A stretch of DNA of 12,381 bases from a virus. Position numbers and translations under genes: made by a program. The notes under the pieces were generated by a model. It was not told the DNA's origin and ran no database searches. It saw only the letters and a program-made list of their open reading frames with translations. The stretch lies in the IMG/VR virus record IMGVR_UViG_3300010339_000161; one strand, written 5' to 3'. Shown here piece after piece: positions 1 to 3,742 of this stretch. The first letter of the stretch is position 1, and the number at the start of each line of letters is the position of its first letter.

Positions 1-339
1 CCAAGACGAAACGCCGCCTTGAGAGCGCGGAATCACGTGGTCAAGGGTGTACTCGTGGAGCTTGAGGCTCTTGGAGCAAAACTGGCACTCGCCGTTGTCG
101 CGGACGTAGATGTTGCGCCGCGAGAACGGGACCGACTGCTTCCGGCGCTTCACCCATGCGTTGCGCACACGGATGACGCGAGGCATGCCCATCTCGAAAG
201 ATGGGGAATGCAGCTTCTTGCCGGACTCGTCTTCCTTGATGACGTCGGCACGATCTTCGTAGATGTTTTTGACTGCGCGGTCCCACGAGCAGAAGCCCAC
301 GGGGCGGTAGTTCATGTCGAGAATCAAGCAATCTGCCAT
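1..339 (-). CDS. HNH endonuclease (partial; C-terminus lies beyond the window start)
   Basis: I translated the minus strand by hand: ATG at 339-337, open reading frame to position 1 with no stop. Protein reads MADCLILDMNYRPVGFCSWDRAVKNIYEDRADVIKEDESGKKLHSPSFEMGMPRVIRVRNAWVKRRKQSVPFSRRNIYVRDNGECQFCSKSLKLHEYTLDHVIPRSQGGVSSW. This contains the CxxC ... LDHVIPRSxGG core of the HNH family. SD-like GAGGGG sits about 7 nt upstream of the ATG. It is absent from the ORF track only because no stop falls inside the window. Confidence 0.8.
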   Translation of the reverse strand, partial: MADCLILDMNYRPVGFCSWDRAVKNIYEDRADVIKEDESGKKLHSPSFEMGMPRVIRVRNAWVKRRKQSVPFSRRNIYVRDNGECQFCSKSLKLHEYTLDHVIPRSQGGVSSW

Positions 340-471: not shown

Positions 472-547
472 TGGTGCGGGCGGCAGGGATTGAACCTGCG
501 ACCTTCGGTTTAAGAGACCGTTGCTCTCCCAACTGAGCTACGCCCGC
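472..547 (-). tRNA. tRNA-Lys (anticodon CTT), CCA encoded
   Basis: Reverse complement folds as a cloverleaf: acceptor GCGGGCG/CGCCCGC, D stem GCTC/GAGC, anticodon loop CTCTTAA, T arm GCAGG-TTCAATC-CCTGC, discriminator A plus CCA. The 27:43 position is an A:A mismatch. Confidence 0.85.
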
Positions 548-571
548 ATAACTTGCAAAGACTGTCCCGCA

Positions 572-793
572 TTATTCCGCAAACTTTTCAATGGACGCAT
601 CCGTGATTCCGAGGCGCGCCATCCAGATGCGGTCGAAATCCTTCGTGTCCGCCAGCCGCTGGGGCTTTTCGCCTTTGCGAAGGAACCACGTCCCCGGCTC
701 CAGCCCCGGAGGATCGGCCCAGACCATCGAGTCAGGGACGAACCCGTCTCTCAAGATCAGCCCGAACGCATCTGCTATGCTGCCGATGTCCAT
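572..793 (-). CDS. hypothetical small protein (73 aa) inside the tRNA array
   Basis: ATG start, GC3-rich codons (ATG GAC ATC GGC AGC ...), non-repetitive composition. The overlapping plus-strand ORFs are Arg-rich antisense-type sequence. No recognisable domain. Confidence 0.4.
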   Translation of the reverse strand: MDIGSIADAFGLILRDGFVPDSMVWADPPGLEPGTWFLRKGEKPQRLADTKDFDRIWMARLGITDASIEKFAE

Positions 794-822
794 ATCTTAC
801 AATACCACGAAACTTAAAATTT

Positions 823-860
823 TGGTGCCCCCGCCCGGATTCGAACCGAGACGTACGTGA
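823..860 (-). pseudogene. tRNA 3'-half remnant (T arm, acceptor 3' strand and CCA only)
   Basis: Reverse complement ends CTCGG-TTCGAAT-CCGGG-CGGGGGC-A-CCA, a perfect T arm plus acceptor 3' strand. No complementary GCCCCCG 5' strand, D arm or anticodon arm can be found in the following roughly 80 nt. The acceptor 3' strand would pair with the 5' strand of the Arg(ACG) gene at 1872-1958. Confidence 0.4.
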
Positions 861-938
861 GTCTTCTTGTGCTTCTCGTACCAACGTCGTTGGCATTCTT
901 TCTGGCTCATCCAGAATAATACCGTGTTTTCAAGAACT

Positions 939-1016
939 TGGTGAGTGCGAAGGGATTTGAACCCTTATCTTACCGGGTAAGAGCCGGATATGTTAAGCCA
1001 TTGACACCACGCACCC
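939..1016 (-). tRNA. tRNA-Lys (anticodon CTT), CCA encoded, 10-nt D loop
   Basis: Acceptor GGGTGCG/CGCACTC (one GU pair), anticodon stem with a 27:43 T:T mismatch, loop CTCTTAC, T arm AAGGG-TTCAAAT-CCCTT, discriminator A plus CCA. Confidence 0.75.
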
Positions 1017-1097
1017 ATTTCAAAACTCGCGTGGGGATTGGAGGATTTCACGAAACGTTCCGCCGATCAAGCGTCTATCTCCCCCCTAGAAGCCTTT

Positions 1098-1166
1098 CGC
1101 CGCCGTTGGATTCGAACCACGCCTTCCCCTCACAAGGGGCGTTCTACCAATTAAACTACCATCGGC
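1098..1166 (-). pseudogene. degenerate tRNA-His-like element (TTGTGAG loop, G-1/C73-type ends, T arm incomplete)
   Basis: 5' end G-CCGATGG pairs with CCAACGG-C, which is a His-type G-1:C73 arrangement. D arm GTTT/GAAC with an AATTGGTA loop, and a TTGTGAG loop as in tRNA-His. The anticodon stem has only 3-4 pairs, and TTCGAAT runs directly into the acceptor 3' strand with no T stem. About 9 nt shorter than a canonical tRNA. Confidence 0.4.
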
Positions 1167-1260
1167 TACTGGGCTTCAATCTTGTCGAACTTGTTGAGCG
1201 ACCCGCTTTGGTCGTCGCCCTCCTGTGAACGAAGTTGCCTTCTACGCGACCGCTCAAGCT

Positions 1261-1335
1261 TGGCTCACCCGGTAGGTGCCGACCCTACTGCATCCCGCTT
1301 AACAGGCGGGCGCTCTGCCGTTGAGCTACGGGTGA
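1261..1335 (-). tRNA. tRNA-Asn (anticodon GTT), CCA encoded, unusual T loop GTCGGCA
   Basis: Acceptor TCACCCG/CGGGTGA (U1:A72, G73, as in E. coli tRNA-Asn), D arm GCTC-AACGGCA-GAGC, anticodon arm CCCGC-CTGTTAA-GCGGG perfect, T stem GTAGG/CCTAC. Confidence 0.8.
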
Positions 1336-1339
1336 ATCT

Positions 1340-1425
1340 TGGCTGGGACGAGAGGATTCGAACCTCTAGTGACCGTAGTCGGTGGGATCAGAACCCACTG
1401 GGGTTGCCAATTTTCCTACGTCCCA
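1340..1425 (-). tRNA. tRNA-Gln-like (anticodon CTG) with a 14-nt variable arm, CCA encoded
   Basis: Acceptor TGGGACG/CGTCCCA with G73-CCA; these are the E. coli tRNA-Gln end signatures. Anticodon arm GTGGG-TTCTGAT-CCCAC, T arm AGAGG-TTCGAAT-CCTCT. A 14-nt insert, CGACTACGGTCACT, lies between the anticodon and T arms and folds as GAC-TACG-GTC (UNCG-type tetraloop). 86 nt in total, which is class-II length. Confidence 0.7.
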
Positions 1426-1596
1426 AAAAATCAGAGAGCCCTCGCGTCCGTGATTTCTCCTACTGTGGGTACCCAGTTCGGAGACCGAGCCCTGCGGCTC
1501 TAATCCGTGGCGCTGCACAGATGGTCTGCACTCGCCGTGCCTCTACATCGGCGCACCGTCCTCCATCGGGGTGTCGGTGCGGGACTCTTCTACACT

Positions 1597-1672
1597 TGGC
1601 TGGCACGGAGGGCCTCGAACCCCCATCGTCTCGGTTAACAGCCGAGCGACTTACCAATTAGCCCACATGCCA
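1597..1672 (-). tRNA. tRNA-Asn (anticodon GTT), CCA encoded
   Basis: Acceptor TGGCATG/CGTGCCA (U1:A72, G73), D arm GGCT-AATTGGTA-AGTC, anticodon arm CTCGG-CTGTTAA-CCGAG perfect, T arm GGGGG-TTCGAGG-CCCTC. Confidence 0.85.
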
Positions 1673-1681
1673 AAACTTTTG

Positions 1682-1867
1682 TTACGCCTTCGTGAAACCC
1701 GCCTTGCAAAACCCGCAGGGACAACCAACTGCATGAACCGTGGAGCCAGCCCGCATGGCGGCGGCCGCCTTGGCGATTGCCTCGTCGCTGCCATAGCCCA
1801 TGGCGGCGAAAAGGTCGGCTTTCAGTTTCGCGCGTTTCGTTTTTTGTTCCTTCGTTGCTTCGCTCAT
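1682..1867 (-). CDS. hypothetical small Lys/Ala-rich protein (61 aa) inside the tRNA array
   Basis: Internal ATG at 1867-1865, 5 nt downstream of the Arg(ACG) tRNA 3' end. Reads MSEATKEQKTKRAKLKADLFAAMGYGSDEAIAKAAAAMRAGSTVHAVGCPCGFCKAGFTKA. GC3-rich codon usage, stop TAA at 1684-1682. The longer track ORF 1682..1960 would overlap the tRNA. Confidence 0.4.
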   Translation of the reverse strand: MSEATKEQKTKRAKLKADLFAAMGYGSDEAIAKAAAAMRAGSTVHAVGCPCGFCKAGFTKA

Positions 1868-1871
1868 ACCT

Positions 1872-1958
1872 TGGTACCCCCGACAGGACTCGAACCTGCA
1901 TTCCCTTTCGGGCAGGACGTTCGTAGCGTCCGTGGCGTCCAATTGCCGACACGGGGGC
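1872..1958 (-). tRNA. tRNA-Arg (anticodon ACG) with a 14-15-nt variable arm, CCA encoded
   Basis: Acceptor GCCCCCG/CGGGGGT, anticodon arm GGACG-CTACGAA-CGTCC perfect, T arm GCAGG-TTCGAGT-CCTGT, A73-CCA. Extra arm TGCCCGAAAGGGAA folds as CCC-GAAA-GGG (GNRA tetraloop). 87 nt in total; the D region is irregular. Confidence 0.65.
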
Positions 1959-1968
1959 ATCTAAAATT

Positions 1969-2055
1969 TGGAACCCGAGACAGGGGTCGAACCTGCATAT
2001 CTTTTCAGAACACCGCGTTCGAAGCGCGGGGCCTATCCATTCGGTCCACTCGGGC
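1969..2055 (-). tRNA. tRNA-Arg (anticodon TCG) with a 16-nt variable arm, CCA encoded
   Basis: Acceptor GCCCGAG/CTCGGGT (G1:U72), anticodon arm CCGCG-CTTCGAA-CGCGG perfect, T arm GCAGG-TTCGACC-CCTGT, T73-CCA. Extra arm TGTTCTGAAAAGATAT contains TCT-GAAA-AGA. 87 nt in total. Confidence 0.65.
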
Positions 2056-2497
2056 AAAAACCCCATCGCCACGTGCCAAACTGTTTAGCTGTTCTTCGTT
2101 TGTGGCAGTTCGCACATCGCACGTCGCACTTCAAAATTTCTCGTTTCAGCTTACTGAAGTTGTGACTGCTCAGCAATTTTCCGATTTCAGCTTCTTTTTC
2201 CTCGCCGTCTCGGTGGTCAAATTCTAGAACAACTAAGTCTGTTTCTCCGCAACCAATACATGGATGTTCTTTGAAGTAAGCGAGCAGCCATTCACGAATT
2301 CGTTGTAGATATTTAGCGTCGTTCCGTTTCGCTTTGTCAAAGTAGTATTGCTTGTTACCAGCGTAATGTTCACGTCCATAAAGACGCTGGCAGTTTATGC
2401 AATACGAAAACCACCCTTTGCGTTTTCCTTTACGCTCTCGAAACTCTGCTATAGGCTTCGGTTCCCCGCCGCAGCGAATACAAATCTTTGTTTCCAT
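2033..2497 (-). CDS. HNH homing-type endonuclease (154 aa from the ATG at 2497; the track ORF extends to a GTG at 2530)
   Basis: Protein carries CIRCGG ... CINC ... CIGCGETDLVVLEFDHRDGEEK ... CANCHKRR, the two zinc-ribbon CxxC pairs and the His-Asn-His core of HNH nucleases. The locus is visibly AT-richer than its flanks. Its 3' end overlaps the 5' end of the Arg(TCG) tRNA by about 23 nt. Confidence 0.75.
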   Translation of the reverse strand: METKICIRCGGEPKPIAEFRERKGKRKGWFSYCINCQRLYGREHYAGNKQYYFDKAKRNDAKYLQRIREWLLAYFKEHPCIGCGETDLVVLEFDHRDGEEKEAEIGKLLSSHNFSKLKREILKCDVRCANCHKRRTAKQFGTWRWGFCPSGPNG

Positions 2498-2543
2498 AAC
2501 TTCTAATACTGGTTTAGAAGCAGGAACCACACTTTCTAAATTT
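2056..2543 (-). mobile_element. AT-rich island carrying a free-standing HNH endonuclease between two tRNA genes (homing-endonuclease-type insertion)
   Basis: Base composition drops visibly relative to the flanking tRNA genes (about 60% GC). Its only content is the HNH ORF, sitting between the Arg(TCG) and Arg(GCG) tRNAs, an arrangement known from free-standing seg/mob-type endonucleases in phage tRNA clusters. Confidence 0.45.
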
Positions 2544-2620
2544 TGGTGCTCGCGGGCAGATTCGAACTGCCAACCTCATCCTTCGCAGGGATGCGCTCTG
2601 ATCCGTTGAGCTACGCAAGC
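2544..2620 (-). tRNA. tRNA-Arg (anticodon GCG), CCA encoded
   Basis: Acceptor GCTTGCG/CGCGAGC, D arm GCTC-AACGGATCA-GAGC, anticodon arm CATCC-CTGCGAA-GGATG perfect, T arm GGCAG-TTCGAAT-CTGCC perfect, A73-CCA. Confidence 0.85.
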
Positions 2621-2626
2621 TAAACT

Positions 2627-2696
2627 TGGTAGTCCCGTCCGGGTACGATCCGGAATCCCAGCCTTCGGAGGGCTGTGCCCTGTCCATTTGGACTAC
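2627..2696 (-). pseudogene. anomalous tRNA-Arg-like element (anticodon CCG) with a truncated D arm and nonstandard T loop ATCGTAC
   Basis: Anticodon arm CAGCC-CTCCGAA-GGCTG, T arm TCCGG-ATCGTAC-CCGGA and acceptor 3' strand CGGGACT-A-CCA are all good. The 5' acceptor strand AGTCCAA pairs at only 5 of 7 positions, and only about 12 nt are available for the D arm. It is either a D-arm-deficient tRNA or a decaying paralog. Confidence 0.4.
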
Positions 2697-2708
2697 GGAA
2701 CCAAACTT

Positions 2709-2891
2709 CTAAGCCCCCGGCGTACCGCGCACGGTCGGGCGATTCGATAAAGACGGTGGACTGATCCTCTTCCCAAGCTCAGCCGCCCTCTTCGCCAAGG
2801 CCTGTTTCATCGAGCCCGGTTCGAGGTCGTTCGCGATCCTGCGCAAATTCGCGATCTCGGCTTTTATTTTCAATACTTCTAGTCTGTCCAT
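2709..2891 (-). CDS. hypothetical small helical protein (60 aa)
   Basis: ATG at 2891-2889 and stop TAG at 2709. Reads MDRLEVLKIKAEIANLRRIANDLEPGSMKQALAKRAAELGKRISPPSLSNRPTVRGTPGA. It lies in the 200-nt spacer between the tRNA-like element at 2627-2696 and tRNA-His. Confidence 0.3.
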   Translation of the reverse strand: MDRLEVLKIKAEIANLRRIANDLEPGSMKQALAKRAAELGKRISPPSLSNRPTVRGTPGA

Positions 2892-2912
2892 TGCACGTCT
2901 CTCTTTAAAATT

Positions 2913-2992
2913 TGGGGTGTCGTGCTGGATTTGAACCAGCGCATAACAGATTCACAGTCTGCCGTGTTAAACCAACCTTCACCAACGACACC
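2913..2992 (-). tRNA. tRNA-His (anticodon GTG) with genomically encoded G-1, CCA encoded
   Basis: G-1 plus GTGTCGT pairs with ACGACAC plus C73. Anticodon arm GCAGA-CTGTGAA-TCTGT, T arm GCTGG-TTCAAAT-CCAGC, and a large D loop. Confidence 0.8.
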
Positions 2993-3127
2993 ATCGGGAG
3001 CCGGAGCGCCTGTATAAGCACATCTCCTATTTGGCTAGGCTCTCGCCTTGCAAACACATGCGGGGACTTGCTATCGTCCTTTCGGAAACCAAGCACATAC
3101 CGCGCCTAGATTGGTTCCCCGCAAACT

Positions 3128-3203
3128 TGGGGTGGGCGGTCGGGGTCGAACCGACAACTACTGGTTCCACAGACCAGCGTTCTGCCATTGAACTACGCTC
3201 ACC
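3128..3203 (-). tRNA. tRNA-His (anticodon GTG) with encoded G-1, CCA encoded
   Basis: G-1 plus GTGAGCG pairs with CGCCCAC plus C73, with an A4:C69 mismatch. D arm GTTC-AATGGCA-GAAC, anticodon arm CTGGT-CTGTGGA-ACCAG (G37), T arm GTCGG-TTCGACC-CCGAC. Confidence 0.8.
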
Positions 3204-3210
3204 ATAAAAA

Positions 3211-3289
3211 TGGGTGACAGGAGGGAATCGAACCCTCGAAACGACGCCTTCACAGGGCGCGGACACATCCCAACACTGCCGACTGTCAC
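3211..3289 (-). tRNA. tRNA-His-like (anticodon GTG); no G-1:C73 pair, CCA not fully encoded
   Basis: Acceptor GTGACAG/CTGTCAC plus C73. Anticodon arm GCGCC-CTGTGAA-GGCGT, T arm GAGGG-TTCGATT-CCCTC, D stem GGCA/TGTC with an 11-nt loop. The base at -1 is T. Confidence 0.65.
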
Positions 3290-3449
3290 ATCTTGCGCAC
3301 CCGGCTGATCCACGGGCACGACTTAAACTTTCATCGACGGCGGTCAGTGTCTCGGCTGCCGCCGTCTGGCGAAGCAAGGCTGAAACGGACCCCGAGTGGT
3401 GCCGTTTCTCATCCGCAGGAGCGCGGGCGCTTCGCGTCTGTCAAGCTTT

Positions 3450-3525
3450 TGGCAGGGGCAGAGGGACTCGAACCCCCGTCGCATCGTTTTGGAGACGAGC
3501 ATAATAGCCGCTATACGATGCCCCT
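3450..3525 (-). tRNA. tRNA-Trp (anticodon CCA), CCA end encoded
   Basis: Acceptor AGGGGCA/TGCCCCT perfect, G73-CCA. Anticodon loop CTCCAAA on a 4-bp stem with a 27:43 C:T mismatch. T arm GGGGG-TTCGAGT-CCCTC. 73 nt without CCA. Confidence 0.8.
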
Positions 3526-3532
3526 AAAATGC

Positions 3533-3560
3533 AAAACCCACCGTTTCGGTGGGTCTGTTT
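3533..3560. terminator. intrinsic-terminator-like hairpin with U-tracts on both sides (bidirectional)
   Basis: Stem CCCACC (3537-3542) / GGTGGG (3548-3553), loop GTTTC. The plus strand is followed by TCTGTTT. On the minus strand it is followed by UUUUGCAUUUU, which runs directly into the tRNA-Trp 5' end. Confidence 0.5.
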
Positions 3561-3712
3561 ACTCGTGTTTTGGAGTCTACTTAATTGGTTGGCTCCCCAA
3601 CACAGAACAGACCTGCGCCGAACCAGCGGTTATTCCGCTGGCAGACTCCGCCCTGATGCTTTCGGGCGGTCGAATTGGCTTTTGTGAAGGTCATATTCTT
3701 CTCTACTGTCAT

Positions 3713-3742
3713 ATAATACACGAAGTCGGGAAATTTTGTCTA
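3713..3742 (-). promoter_or_regulatory. candidate sigma70-like promoter TAGACA-18 nt-TATTAT reading toward the tRNA array
   Basis: Minus-strand hexamers TAGACA (reverse complement of 3737-3742) and TATTAT (reverse complement of 3713-3718) with an 18-nt spacer. It lies in the 200-nt intergenic region between the last protein gene and the terminator and tRNA array. This is pattern matching only. Confidence 0.3.

Follow-up and report, generated by a model that had tools for sequence, protein, structure and literature searches.

Why would a virus carry a compact run of tRNA genes that serves only a few amino acids, most of them several times over? We addressed this question in a window of 12,381 nucleotides (the whole stretch of DNA analysed, from IMG/VR record IMGVR_UViG_3300010339_000161), in which ARAGORN called 13 tRNA genes at 472-3525, all on the minus strand, and none elsewhere in the 12.4 kb. 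These tRNAs serve six amino acids only: Arg, His, Lys, Asn, Gln and Trp.

tRNA genes of the window

The anticodons assigned by manual folding in the first-pass annotation were all reproduced by ARAGORN. Eleven of the 13 genes scored above the gathering threshold of the Rfam tRNA model (E from 4e-14 to 2e-4), and two, Arg-ACG (1872-1958) and His (3212-3289), fell short of even E=1 with that model; other phage contigs nevertheless contain orthologues of both, in which compensatory changes preserve the cloverleaf. The stems of the window tRNAs likewise carry compensatory changes across phages, and three tRNAs of 86-87 nt (Arg ACG, Arg TCG and Gln CTG) have long variable arms that are conserved and covary. 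In the ARAGORN register, the CCA end is encoded in 12 of 13 genes; His 3212-3289 has an encoded CCA only if its first G is taken as G-1. The anticodon loops are ordinary, with few exceptions (C/U32, U33, purine 37, A38): position 37 is A apart from G in His 3128-3202, position 38 is A apart from U in Gln and C in Lys 939-1016, and no obvious escape mutation was seen in the loops of the array. Each tRNA also keeps what we take to be its identity elements: G-1 and C73 in His, A20 and C35 in Arg, A73 in Lys, U1:A72 and G73 in Gln and Asn, and A1:U72 and G73 in Trp.

The first gene of the array is tRNA-Trp(CCA) (3450..3525, minus strand like all genes of the array; Rfam 48.4 bits), with A1:U72, G73 and an encoded CCA, whose orthologues in the related contigs L025, L015 and L017 are 87-92% identical. 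Three His(GTG) lineages follow. The third lineage (3212..3289) has an unusual D-loop (..TGGGATG..) and groups with L022:4690, L032:6110 and L034:5641; the canonical one (3128..3202; 60.8 bits), with an encoded G at -1 and C73, groups with His genes from 10 other loci; and the second, of 79 nt (2913..2991; 57.2 bits), has orthologues at L020:5798 and L033:4301.

The Arg genes read CCG (2627..2702; 47.1 bits), GCG (2544..2620; 67.3 bits; A20 present), TCG (1969..2055; 87 nt; 35.1 bits) and ACG (1872..1958; 87 nt). Their anticodon loops, described earlier as CT-A/T/G/C-CGAA, were confirmed by ARAGORN and by reading the sequence. Arg-CCG has A37 and an unusual T-loop, ATCGTAC, and is 80% identical to L024:5170. 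Arg-TCG has G1.U72 and a long, class-II-like variable-arm hairpin; that of Arg-ACG, which keeps A20, C35 and G36, is CCC-GAAA-GGG. The two long tRNAs form one structural family with covariation (71% identity between the window copies), and the orthologues of Arg-ACG at L020:6303 (87%) and L032:6580 (80%) show compensatory changes, the variable-arm loop being GAAA or TTCG. Bacteria typically read the CGN box with two anticodons, ACG (as inosine) and CCG, instead of four.

The remaining genes comprise two Asn(GTT) lineages, one beginning TGGCATG (1597..1672; 54.8 bits; 87% identical to L023:6706) and one beginning TCACCCG (1261..1335; 54 bits), which is 64% identical to the first and 77% to L015:8847. 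Between them lies tRNA-Gln(CTG) (1340..1425; 86 nt; 44 bits), with a long variable-arm hairpin and, presumably, the identity elements of E. coli GlnRS (U1:A72, G2:C71, G3:C70, G73, loop UUCUGAU); compared with its orthologues (L022:6142, L033:5630, L020:5507), it has double compensatory changes at 13 of 24 pairs, some of them in the variable arm. The two Lys(CTT) genes are lineage 1, of 78 nt (939..1016; 51.5 bits; orthologues L033:6231, L013:6378 and L020:7027), and lineage 2 (472..547; 70.7 bits), the last tRNA of the window.

Conservation of the array among relatives

The stretch 472-3525 makes up the first half of a tRNA array that is conserved and vertically inherited, and that belongs to an uncultivated huge phage. 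The order Trp, His, Arg CCG/GCG/TCG/ACG, two Asn, two Lys CTT and then an HNH gene, with the same composition, is common to L013, L014, L015, L017, L018, L020, L023, L032 and L151. The McrA-like HNH endonuclease gene at the window start (1..339, minus strand; its 5' part only, since it runs off the edge, ~181 aa from the translation of ENA contig L001) corresponds to the midpoint of the array in relatives: its homologues P0002-P0009 (77-86%) are each followed, past the point where the window ends, by Arg CCT, Gln CTG, Lys TTT and, in some, Arg TCT. Order and composition remain steady over HNH identities from 86% down to ~60%, which implies purifying selection on the set.

Window tRNAs are 57-71% identical to their paralogues and 75-92% to their orthologues, which places the origin of each isodecoder lineage before these phages diverged. 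The sequence-diverged copies proposed earlier are thus ancient lineages retained in parallel. Clade loci were taken with flanks of 8-10 kb round the array, shorter at contig ends, from 14 non-redundant members; Tyr, Asp, Thr and Glu tRNAs, all of them frequently attacked by tRNases, were absent from these loci and from the window. More distant members have Phe, three Met and three Pro genes within the equivalent array, so the six-amino-acid rule is not absolute.

Endonuclease genes, remnants and small reading frames

The first-pass annotation was right about the presence of HNH genes, and undercounted them: in place of two, the window holds three, namely the McrA-like gene, one outside the array (8538-8855) and a homing-type endonuclease (2033..2530, minus strand; phrog_2255, E=9e-36). 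The last, whose start is likely the ATG at 2494, is inserted between Arg-GCG and Arg-TCG, and its 3' end runs into the 5' end of Arg-TCG. Its homologues sit at other array positions in relatives, with a 44-aa remnant in L017/L018; this mobility, and the persistence of remnants, support the earlier suggestion of ongoing duplication and turnover.

A tRNA-like element and a tRNA 3' half also lie in the window, both on the minus strand. The former, previously called a decayed His copy, was located at about 1098..1166 and stays below the Rfam threshold (22.4 bits against 29); it folds as a cloverleaf whose anticodon loop has 6 nt, and lacks an encoded CCA. It is orthologous to L022:6531-6601 and L033:6075-6142, flanks included, and several of its pairs are broken in the window copy. 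The 3' half (823..850), read off the sequence and identical in L001, retains the T-arm, an Arg-like acceptor strand (CGGGGGC), A73 and CCA. A putative short reading frame, with the start MSQKECQRRWYEKHKK at ~915, precedes this half.

Three small ORFs occupy gaps of the array, again on the minus strand. The 73-aa ORF between both Lys-CTT genes (572..793) has an exact copy in L001 and lies at the equivalent position in the arrays of L015, L016 and L023 (59-66% identity). The 61-aa ORF between Arg-ACG and Asn (1682..1867) is partly conserved (tblastn, 78% over 27 aa in L015; weak in L020), and no homologue of the 60-aa ORF between His and Arg-CCG (2709..2891) was found in the fetched relatives.

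Flanking region and phage origin

Upstream of the array on the minus strand are a terminator-like or processing hairpin (3534..3556), 8 nt from tRNA-Trp, a small ORF (3581-3697) conserved in L020, L022 and L015, and a sigma-70-like promoter, TAGACA-18-TATTAT (3713..3742). Further upstream, an RlaP-family nucleotidyltransferase gene associated with RNA repair (9527..10540, minus strand; PF10127 E=3e-21, phrog_388 E=4e-44) is at the equivalent position in the gene tables of L015 and L017, and an unannotated 277-aa ORF holds that place in L046. The window, and 9 kb of upstream sequence in L046, yielded no RNA ligase. RlaP biochemistry and its role in jumbo phages have been described (PMC12776372 and PMC7824862, respectively). 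Beyond it lie the C-terminal two-thirds of a major-vault-protein homologue (10842..12338, minus strand; MVP_shoulder 2.5e-25, Vault_3 1.2e-9), which has 810-826 aa at full length in relatives, is complete in L046 and also occurs in L017.

The flanking genes belong to phage families (phrog_10079, phrog_388 and the HNH PHROGs), and synteny links the window to IMG/VR huge-phage contigs of 37-463 kb and to an 894-kb contig; the array is thus phage-carried, as first proposed. A search with the 393-aa protein adjoining the array through 185,579 species, each represented by a single genome, did not recover the parent contig. The parent genome probably measures hundreds of kb and could contain further tRNA clusters; as many as 67 tRNAs are known from huge phages (PMC7162821).

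Six amino acids against background and demand

The restriction to six amino acids, noted at first from the window, proved real, conserved and far outside the range of our background of 78 unrelated phage tRNA loci (including 44 arrays and 65 Arg tRNAs). The six isotypes account for 13 of 13 genes here and for 27.7% in the background, where no array exceeds a share of 0.625; Arg-GCG occurs in none of the 65 background Arg tRNAs.

Plain translational supplementation is a credible if somewhat unlikely explanation: the tRNAs would be those that become limiting for the phage proteome, or that run down late in a long infection when host tRNA synthesis ceases, and the six families would be the ones for which phage demand most exceeds host supply. 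Relatives carry HisRS-like and TrpRS-like fragments, an IF3 C-domain ORF and an amino-acid permease in or adjoining their arrays, and GCG pairs with CGC, the dominant Arg codon of the window genes (80 of 185). In the window proteins, K (6.7%), N (4.2%), H (3.0%) and W (2.1%) are, we presume, somewhat high for a GC-rich bacterium. However, tRNAs for the residues that the window genes use most (E, L, G, A, D, V) are absent, which argues against simple demand matching, and Arg has four to six genes although R, like Q, is not enriched. Gln-CUG, never Gln-UUG, together with both Lys anticodons does not match a GC-mismatch pattern, and dosage alone leaves unexplained why structurally distinct isodecoders, some canonical and some with long variable arms, were kept side by side for so long. 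Huge phages often encode numerous tRNAs and translation genes (PMC7162821).

It is more doubtful that the array is one of several clusters, shaped by local duplication and mutation of position 34 and not by selection. Relatives measure 100-463 kb, one contig 894 kb, and if other clusters exist elsewhere in the genome, the array could be a sub-set with no special logic. GCG and CCG are close paralogues in L013 and L017, with anticodon stem-loops in L013 that differ at position 34 only, so switching at that position after duplication does occur; the 71% identity of the two long Arg tRNAs points the same way. Moreover, L034 has Leu, Ile and TCA-anticodon tRNAs ~5 kb upstream of the core, and other members add Phe, Met, Pro or Cys. 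Against this stand the stable order and composition of the array and the lack of any further tRNA up to ~9 kb away in either direction in the window, L017 and L013. In addition, the Asn, Lys, His, Trp and Arg bodies are unrelated in sequence and differ in identity elements, and duplication cannot explain their co-occurrence.

Very improbable is a nitrogen logic, by which the array, with the permease and synthetase-like genes that relatives have near it, would keep residues rich in costly nitrogen being decoded when the host is short of nitrogen. The six amino acids are exactly those with side-chain nitrogen, the set matches exactly in the window, L013, L015, L017, L020, L023 and L032, and some related samples are, we believe, from peat or bog. 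The coincidence was nevertheless spotted after the fact, extra tRNA genes do not relieve an amino-acid shortage, the wider clade adds Phe, Met, Pro and Cys, and the permease is a generic APC transporter far under any subfamily cut-off. Finally, an ordinary host tRNA operon, or a prophage-borne copy, is scarcely tenable given the phage-family neighbours, the synteny with viral contigs, the four CGN anticodons and the 393-aa neighbour, which as a protein query found only two distant homologues (29-31%) in the 185,579 species.

A proposed reserve of tRNAs against host nucleases

The first-pass annotation read the locus as a tRNA-replacement cassette whose amino acids match the targets of anticodon nucleases. 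Phage origin, the six-family restriction, the diverged copies and RlaP support the cassette in part; the match to a target list is weakened, as it was built after the fact and other target families are missing. PrrC acts on Lys-UUU and PaT/zymocin on Gln-UUG, whereas the window encodes Lys-CUU and Gln-CUG, and colicin E5 also targets Tyr and Asp tRNAs, both missing from the array; the prediction that they would lie nearby failed in the window and in the flanking loci of the 14 members. Ser, Leu, Glu and Cys tRNAs are likewise targets of known tRNases. So are Thr, Tyr and fMet (PMC10264068, PMC7824862, PMC12409363, PMC12445682, PMC11555353, PMC13096335). None of these seven occurs in the array of the window or in those of its closer relatives; the exceptions are a single Cys gene in L033 and a single Met(CAT) gene in L026.

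Replacement of tRNAs by phages facing host defence has been shown experimentally elsewhere (the same six reports). Phage tRNAs Lys, Thr and Asn rescue infection from PARIS (PMC12409363), tRNA Thr from P2 OLD (PMC12445682) and tRNA Tyr from retron and Septu (PMC11555353, PMC13096335), and amplification of a phage tRNA gene by a homing endonuclease led to escape from defence (PMC13096335).

We put about even confidence in the explanation that the array sustains phage translation when host tRNAs of the six families are cleaved or depleted in infection. The minus-strand genes would probably be co-transcribed and then excised by host RNases, and host synthetases should charge the products in the normal way, since the presumed identity elements are kept. 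The phage would thereby hold its own tRNA pool for CAY, CAG, AAY, AAR, all CGN and UGG, and in relatives for AGR; with one Watson-Crick Arg tRNA for each CGN codon, inosine would not be needed for decoding. Most anticodons have two or three old, structurally distinct isodecoders, some with a variable-arm hairpin, and such diversity of tRNA bodies may make it less likely that a single tRNase would knock out an entire family. HNH homing endonucleases within the array would shift, duplicate and at times destroy genes, and RlaP upstream points to a second route, the repair of damaged RNA ends. The ancient lineages kept in parallel fit selection for diversity over dosage, and the conserved array is consistent with a store of spare tRNAs with which these phages would survive attacks on the tRNAs of their hosts.

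Genomic context of the array

When the DNA of the whole window was searched at near identity against 50,697 GenBank phages, no match was returned, and a distant-mode search of the GenBank phages matched single tRNAs only, at 77-82% identity. The flanking genes give PHROG matches, and the window is syntenic with IMG/VR viral contigs. The 393-aa protein encoded beside the array belongs to phrog_10079 and is 46% identical to Bordetella and Pseudomonas phage proteins; only two distant homologues of it occur among species-representative genomes, and searches of IMG/VR, JGI metagenomes and species-representative genomes yielded distant relatives only, none with tRNAs nearby. Exact-protein matches were limited to short fragments in one ENA assembly and one Logan run, the ENA fragments ending at the array.

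The HNH gene truncated by the window start has full-length homologues, 77-86% identical, on contigs syntenic with the window, and further viral contigs, of 37-463 kb, came from scanning IMG/VR with the HNH alignment. The gene order shared among these loci, which were fetched from other contigs and are designated here by L-numbers, comprises a homologue of the major vault protein (MVP), the nucleotidyltransferase RlaP, small ORFs, a 401-aa ORF, the tRNA array, the HNH gene and more tRNAs. The 401-aa ORF of the relatives occupies the position of the 393-aa phrog_10079 gene of the window, a correspondence of position only. The vault-protein homologue is 36-37% identical to proteins of two huge phages described by Al-Shayeb et al. 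(2020), LR756500 and LR756501, of 462 kb and 735 kb. Given syntenic contigs of such size and a vault-protein homologue shared with these two phages, the window is a piece of an uncultivated huge phage. No tRNAs lie within 17-20 kb of the MVP gene in LR756500 or LR756501, so that the arrangement is specific to a sub-clade.

One syntenic contig, L017 (JGI Ga0374055_0000025), is 894,233 bp long, 20 kb of which was examined. Its 894 kb is above the record of 735 kb set in 2020 and above the 841 kb given in the abstract of a 2025 preprint, and it may represent one exceptionally large phage genome, a concatemer, or phage DNA lying within a cellular contig.

The tRNA genes of the window

ARAGORN identified 13 tRNA genes at 472-3525; all are encoded on the minus strand, and the rest of the 12,381-base window contains none. 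In the order of transcription they are Trp CCA, three copies of His GTG, Arg CCG, Arg GCG, an HNH gene, Arg TCG, Arg ACG, Asn GTT, Gln CTG, Asn GTT and two copies of Lys CTT. The anticodons assigned manually in the first-pass annotation are identical to those called by ARAGORN for all 13 genes, and its statement that the four CGN-reading Arg tRNAs share the loop CT-N-CGAA was likewise borne out. Eleven of the 13 genes score above the curated (gathering) threshold of the Rfam tRNA model, with E-values from 4e-14 to 2e-4. The remaining two, Arg-ACG 1872-1958 and His 3212-3289, fall short even of E=1 with this model, but both fold as cloverleaves. They have conserved orthologues in other phages, for which reason we rejected the reading of these low-scoring copies as decaying pseudogenes. 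A 3′ CCA is encoded in 12 of the 13 genes in the ARAGORN register, and His 3212-3289 has one only when its first G is taken as G-1. The two best His genes encode a G at -1, opposite C73.

A relaxed ARAGORN threshold produced 34 calls scattered across both strands of the window, which were judged to be noise; because of these spurious calls we relied on the default ARAGORN calls and on Rfam, and retained from the relaxed calls only the element at 1098-1166, on Rfam and orthology support. The array is far beyond chance, and purifying selection on tRNA structure is evident from double compensatory changes in the two most unusual families and from orthologues that are 75-92% identical. A sigma-70-like promoter is located at 3742-3713, with a hairpin just ahead of the Trp gene, and we infer that the array is co-transcribed, processed by host RNases and charged by host synthetases.

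Two features of individual sequences were also recorded. Nearly all tRNAs of the array (472-3525, minus strand) continue after the encoded CCA with A and then (A/G)NTT, as in CCAAATTTT, CCAAGTTT, CCAAGCTT and similar trailers, which may constitute a common processing signal or flanks carried along by duplication. Arg-CCG at 2627-2702 (minus strand) has A37 in its anticodon loop, where bacterial Arg-CCG tRNAs carry G37 (the site of m1G); its T-loop is ATCGTAC, the usual sequence being TTCGAAT, so that positions 54 and 58 appear to have been exchanged.

Conservation and composition across relatives

The order and content of the array are conserved across relatives. In L017 and L018 it runs Trp, a HisRS-like ORF, His, Arg GCG, Arg CCG, Arg TCG, Arg ACG, Asn, Asn, Lys CTT, Lys CTT, an HNH gene, Arg CCT, Gln CTG, Lys TTT, Arg TCT and Lys TTT, and variants of this array are present in L013, L014, L015, L020, L023, L032 and L151. 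In L150, the closest HNH relative (86% identical), the HNH gene is followed by Arg CCT, Gln CTG and Lys TTT. Since the relatives, including L150, continue with tRNAs beyond the HNH gene, the window edge almost certainly cuts through the array, whose full set probably comprises up to six Arg anticodons and both Lys anticodons besides Trp, His, Asn and Gln-CUG. More distant members, with 63-66% HNH identity, have Phe, three CAT-anticodon and three Pro tRNAs in addition; in single genomes there is also Cys, or Leu-UAA together with Ile-UAU and a TCA-anticodon tRNA. No tRNA for Tyr, Asp, Glu, Ala, Gly, Val, Ser or Thr ever occurs in the array, either in the window or in the relatives examined, and no Gln-UUG was seen in the fetched loci of the relatives. 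A 73-aa ORF at 572-793 (minus strand) of the window has counterparts of 59-66% identity at L015:9014-9232, L016:122-340 and L023:7554-7760, in the same array position directly ahead of a Lys-CTT gene.

As a background for composition we used 78 unrelated phage loci with 860 tRNAs, returned by a pattern scan run for another purpose. The six isotypes of the array (Arg, His, Lys, Asn, Gln and Trp) account for 27.7% of these tRNA genes, and in the 44 background loci with at least eight tRNAs their share has a median of 0.28 and a maximum of 0.625. The corresponding share is 13 of 13 in the window and also 100% in six non-redundant relatives (11/11 to 15/15). Among the 65 background Arg tRNAs, the GCG anticodon does not occur and CCG occurs once. 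The composition of the array is clearly an outlier, stated here without a p-value because the isotype set was chosen after the fact.

Isodecoder lineages

Compared across phages, the tRNA copies are not redundant. Paralogues within the window are no more than 57-71% identical, and each has an orthologue in other phages at 75-92%. Clustering separated three His, two or three Lys-CTT, two Arg-ACG and several Gln lineages, each of which spans several phages, and inspection of the Asn pair distinguished two types of acceptor stem (TGGCATG/TGGGGTG and TCACCCG/TCCTCGG), with the order kept in L013, L015 and L017. Because the lineages cross phages and paralogues are less alike than orthologues, the isodecoders are older than the divergence of the phages and have been kept side by side since. 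In L013 and L017 the GCG and CCG genes are close paralogues, those of L013 differing in their anticodon stem-loops at position 34 only, and the Arg-TCG gene of the window belongs to the structural family of its Arg-ACG gene; switching of position 34 after duplication is visible in these genes.

Arg and Gln tRNAs with long variable arms

Arg ACG (1872-1958), Arg TCG (1969-2055) and Gln CTG (1340-1425) measure 86-87 nt, owing to a hairpin in the variable region. Their V-arms are 15-16 nt long with a helix of 3-4 bp, a class II arm being defined as 10 nt or more that form a helix. They share this long helical arm with class II tRNAs, which are normally Leu, Ser, (bacterial) Tyr and Sec only (PMC7609411); as the window genes carry Arg and Gln anticodons, they are class-II-like and not members of class II. 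A covariation test covering the Gln and Arg ACG/TCG families found double compensatory changes in 13 of the 24 pairs of the Gln family (four phages), including three of its four V-arm pairs, and in 12 of the 25 pairs of the Arg ACG/TCG family, whose V-arms covary. In Arg ACG and its orthologues the V-arm is capped by a tetraloop, GAAA in two phages and TTCG in a third, and L020, L032 and L033 each retain, beside the long-arm gene, one of normal length that has the same anticodon.

The long-arm tRNAs also retain features that we take to be identity elements, namely A20, C35 and G36 for Arg, and U1:A72, G2:C71, G3:C70 and G73 for Gln. Given the covariation, these presumed elements and the normal-length counterparts, the long-arm Gln and Arg tRNAs are not decay products. 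Because the elements kept are those of Arg and Gln and not those of Leu, Ser or Tyr, the tRNAs are probably charged with their cognate amino acid. Derivation from Leu, Ser or Tyr tRNAs by a switch of anticodon was considered and rejected, since acceptor stems, D-loops and discriminators match what we presume to be Arg and Gln identity.

Insertions of the same type are found within the clade in Asn, Trp, Arg-CCT, Lys-UUU and Ile tRNAs, and in unrelated phage contigs (L061, L077, L088 and L110) in Cys, Pro and Lys tRNAs. The long V-arm tRNAs of the relatives lie at L020:5507, L020:6303, L020:6601, L022:5947, L022:6142, L032:6580, L033:5194, L033:5630, L033:9227, L027:9382 and L150:1139-1224. Many long V-arm hairpins are capped by GAAA- or TTCG-type tetraloops. 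Other V-arm-bearing oddities are the nematode nev-tRNAs and the bacterial allo-tRNAs. The T-arm string AATGCAGGTTCGAGTCCTGTC of the long Arg tRNAs (window 1885-1905, minus strand) recurs exactly on 100 IMG/VR stretches and in many isotypes; among the 80 stretches fetched (L050-L129), 42 hold a Cys-GCA tRNA with G1.U72 and U73, and others Pro, Arg-TCT, Gly, Thr, Phe or Lys tRNAs. This pattern suggests that phages share one tRNA scaffold and reuse it under different anticodons.

HNH genes, remnants and a tRNA-like element

Where two HNH genes had been annotated at first pass, we count three. Homologues of the in-array HNH gene occupy other array positions in L026 and L027 and are reduced to a 44-aa remnant in L017 and L018. 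The intact HNH ORF extends into the first 23 nt of the Arg-TCG gene (window 2033-2055). A tRNA 3′ half with an Arg-like acceptor strand, at 823-850, is added to the remnants listed previously; it directly follows a short reading frame (window 823-915, minus strand) starting MSQKECQRRWYEKHKK. The 3′ half and the overlap of HNH and Arg-TCG may be read as traces of endonuclease insertion beside or into Arg tRNA genes.

The copy of tRNA-His described earlier as decayed was located at 1098-1166 (minus strand), with an Rfam score of 22.4 bits. The element has orthologues in two phages (L022:6531-6601 and L033:6075-6142), placed like it between the second Asn gene (Asn-b) and Lys with conserved flanks. 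In all three phages it has a 6-nt anticodon loop and no encoded CCA, and in the window copy several base pairs are broken. It may represent an ancient pseudogene common to these phages, or else a tRNA-like RNA without a decoding role.

The endonuclease family involved here is HNH, whereas SegB of T4/T6 belongs to the GIY-YIG family. As with the HNH genes of the window, the SegB region features a free-standing homing endonuclease that reshapes a tRNA array, and there it amplifies a phage tRNA gene, which leads to escape from Septu (PMC13096335). Only relocation and decay, in the form of truncated HNH genes and tRNA remnants, were observed in our loci, and no amplification.

Genes neighbouring the array

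The gene at 9527-10540 encodes an RlaP nucleotidyltransferase (PF10127, E=3e-21). According to the gene tables, RlaP has the same position in L015 and L017, and an ORF is present at the corresponding position in L046. RlaP is reported to extend damaged RNA 3′ ends by one or two nucleotides and to be required for heavily damaged, repaired tRNA to regain function (PMC12776372), and its distribution in jumbo phages tracks that of RNA ligases (PMC7824862). A scan of 10 window ORFs, and of seven in the 9 kb upstream of MVP in L046, revealed no RNA ligase of the RtcB or ATP-grasp type and no kinase or phosphatase; in L046 the MVP-RlaP pair is preceded by genes for an ABC ATPase, a SprT-like protein and unknowns.

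The homologue of the eukaryotic major vault protein lies at 10842-12338 (minus strand) in the window, and at L046:8990-11470, L017:1-374 and L013:13064-14428 in relatives. At full length it has 810-826 aa with Vault, Vault_3 and MVP_shoulder domains, and it is always found beside RlaP. In one relative, genes for an ADP-ribosyl glycohydrolase and a PARP-domain protein lie downstream of the array; the vault homologue, PARP and glycohydrolase genes resemble vault-particle components beside tRNA genes.

Relatives also possess translation-related ORFs in or beside the array (L013:4656-5117, L013:14854-15615, L017:7169-7642, L151:983-1228 and L046:19777-21093). They encode a HisRS fragment of 153-157 aa between tRNA-Trp and tRNA-His, a TrpRS-like protein of 253 aa, a generic amino-acid permease of the APC type, and an IF3 C-terminal domain of 81 aa located between the pair of Asn genes; scores of the permease and of the synthetase-like ORFs are well under the cut-offs of their families. 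The HisRS-like ORF is absent in the window, where the Trp-His gap is only 160 nt.

Discussion

The window carries a functional, conserved phage tRNA array of restricted and redundant composition. It is already known that phages carry tRNA arrays, that these abound in huge phages and that they have an anti-tRNase role. The literature examined does not describe a deeply conserved six-amino-acid array with every Arg anticodon, the pairing of canonical with class-II-like isodecoders, or a fixed neighbourhood of vault homologue and RlaP around such an array. The rationale that we favour, with chances that we put at roughly even, is that the phage uses the array tRNAs in place of host tRNAs lost to cleavage or depletion in the course of infection. 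Replacement of this kind is a published rationale (PMC10264068, PMC7824862), and counter-defence by phage tRNAs has been demonstrated with T5 tRNA-Lys, -Thr and -Asn against PARIS AriB (PMC12409363), phage tRNA-Thr against P2 OLD (PMC12445682), and T5 tRNA-Tyr against the PtuAB of Retron-Eco7 and against Septu (PMC11555353, PMC13096335).

This rationale is favoured by the narrow set, the full Arg coverage and the long maintenance of structurally distinct isodecoders, by the RlaP neighbour and endonuclease-driven turnover, and by the lack of tRNAs for the residues that the phage uses most, E, L, G, A, D and V. Supply-and-demand supplementation of tRNAs is a possible, if somewhat unlikely, explanation, and should it hold, the array would offer a clean test case for supply-and-demand models of viral tRNA acquisition. 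An effect of sampling or of duplication history seems to us distinctly unlikely; the isotype set is conserved across relatives, which shows that it is maintained. The six amino acids are exactly the class with nitrogen-containing side chains, and we regard a link to side-chain nitrogen as very improbable. An ordinary host tRNA operon, the alternative against which the first-pass annotation had set its own reading, is effectively refuted, since the window is a piece of a huge phage, with a phage gene context and synteny with IMG/VR viral contigs, and since the Arg anticodons GCG, TCG, ACG and CCG together are non-standard for bacteria.

Several observations count against tRNA replacement as a counter-defence. 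The anticodon loops have an ordinary, canonical appearance, the array lacks Tyr, Asp, Thr and Glu tRNAs, more distant arrays include Phe, Met and Pro, and the restriction is read at one locus of a genome of several hundred kb. The initial match of the isotype list to named anticodon nucleases proved only partly apt. The Arg set fits colicin D, whose range, according to a reference listed in PMC7824862, full Arg coverage matches: ACG, TCG, GCG and CCG are present in the window, and CCT and TCT follow the HNH gene in relatives, a correspondence only. The match to colicin E5, whose targets are the four G/Q34-U35 families (Tyr, His, Asn and Asp), does not hold, as His and Asn are present and Tyr and Asp absent in the window and the fetched array flanks, over 14 non-redundant members. 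PrrC and PaT/zymocin act on Lys-UUU and Gln-UUG, whereas the window has only Lys-CUU and Gln-CUG, with Lys-UUU found downstream in relatives.

T5 carries a broad tRNA set that covers most amino acids; the window, in contrast, has six families with up to six Arg anticodons and several old isodecoders per anticodon. Both combine a phage tRNA array with small ORFs and homing endonucleases, and Lys and Asn, among the proven rescuers in T5-type clusters (PMC12409363), are both families of the window array, whereas the proven targets Thr and Tyr are absent from it. The huge and jumbo phages of Al-Shayeb et al. (2020) and Iyer et al. (2021) present the same setting as the relatives of 100-463 kb, with tRNAs beside synthetase-like, IF3-domain and RNA-repair genes, although what is given there is counts (up to 67 tRNAs) and not a conserved, isotype-restricted array.

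A more specific joint reading, which we consider unlikely, is that the array mirrors the targets of an undescribed host system that depletes basic/amide/indole tRNAs (in codon terms CAN, AAN, CGN, AGR and UGG), and that the phage diversifies tRNA bodies and not loops, keeping for one and the same anticodon a canonical tRNA and a class-II-like tRNA with a tetraloop-capped V-arm hairpin. If this were true, the class-II-like tRNAs for Arg, Gln, Asn, Trp and Lys would form a new structural class of working elongator tRNAs that arose more than once among phages, either as escape variants or to serve as handles for a phage factor such as the vault homologue or RlaP. The covarying long-arm Arg and Gln tRNAs are useful for studies of recognition by synthetases and nucleases and for orthogonal tRNA engineering.

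The proven phage-tRNA counter-measures come from a few coliphages with broad sets, whereas the window array is narrow, deeply conserved, highly redundant and environmental. If it does serve counter-defence, its composition would be a read-out of the host tRNAs attacked in uncultivated soil and peat bacteria, and would point to an Arg-wide, colicin D-type tRNase in phage defence.
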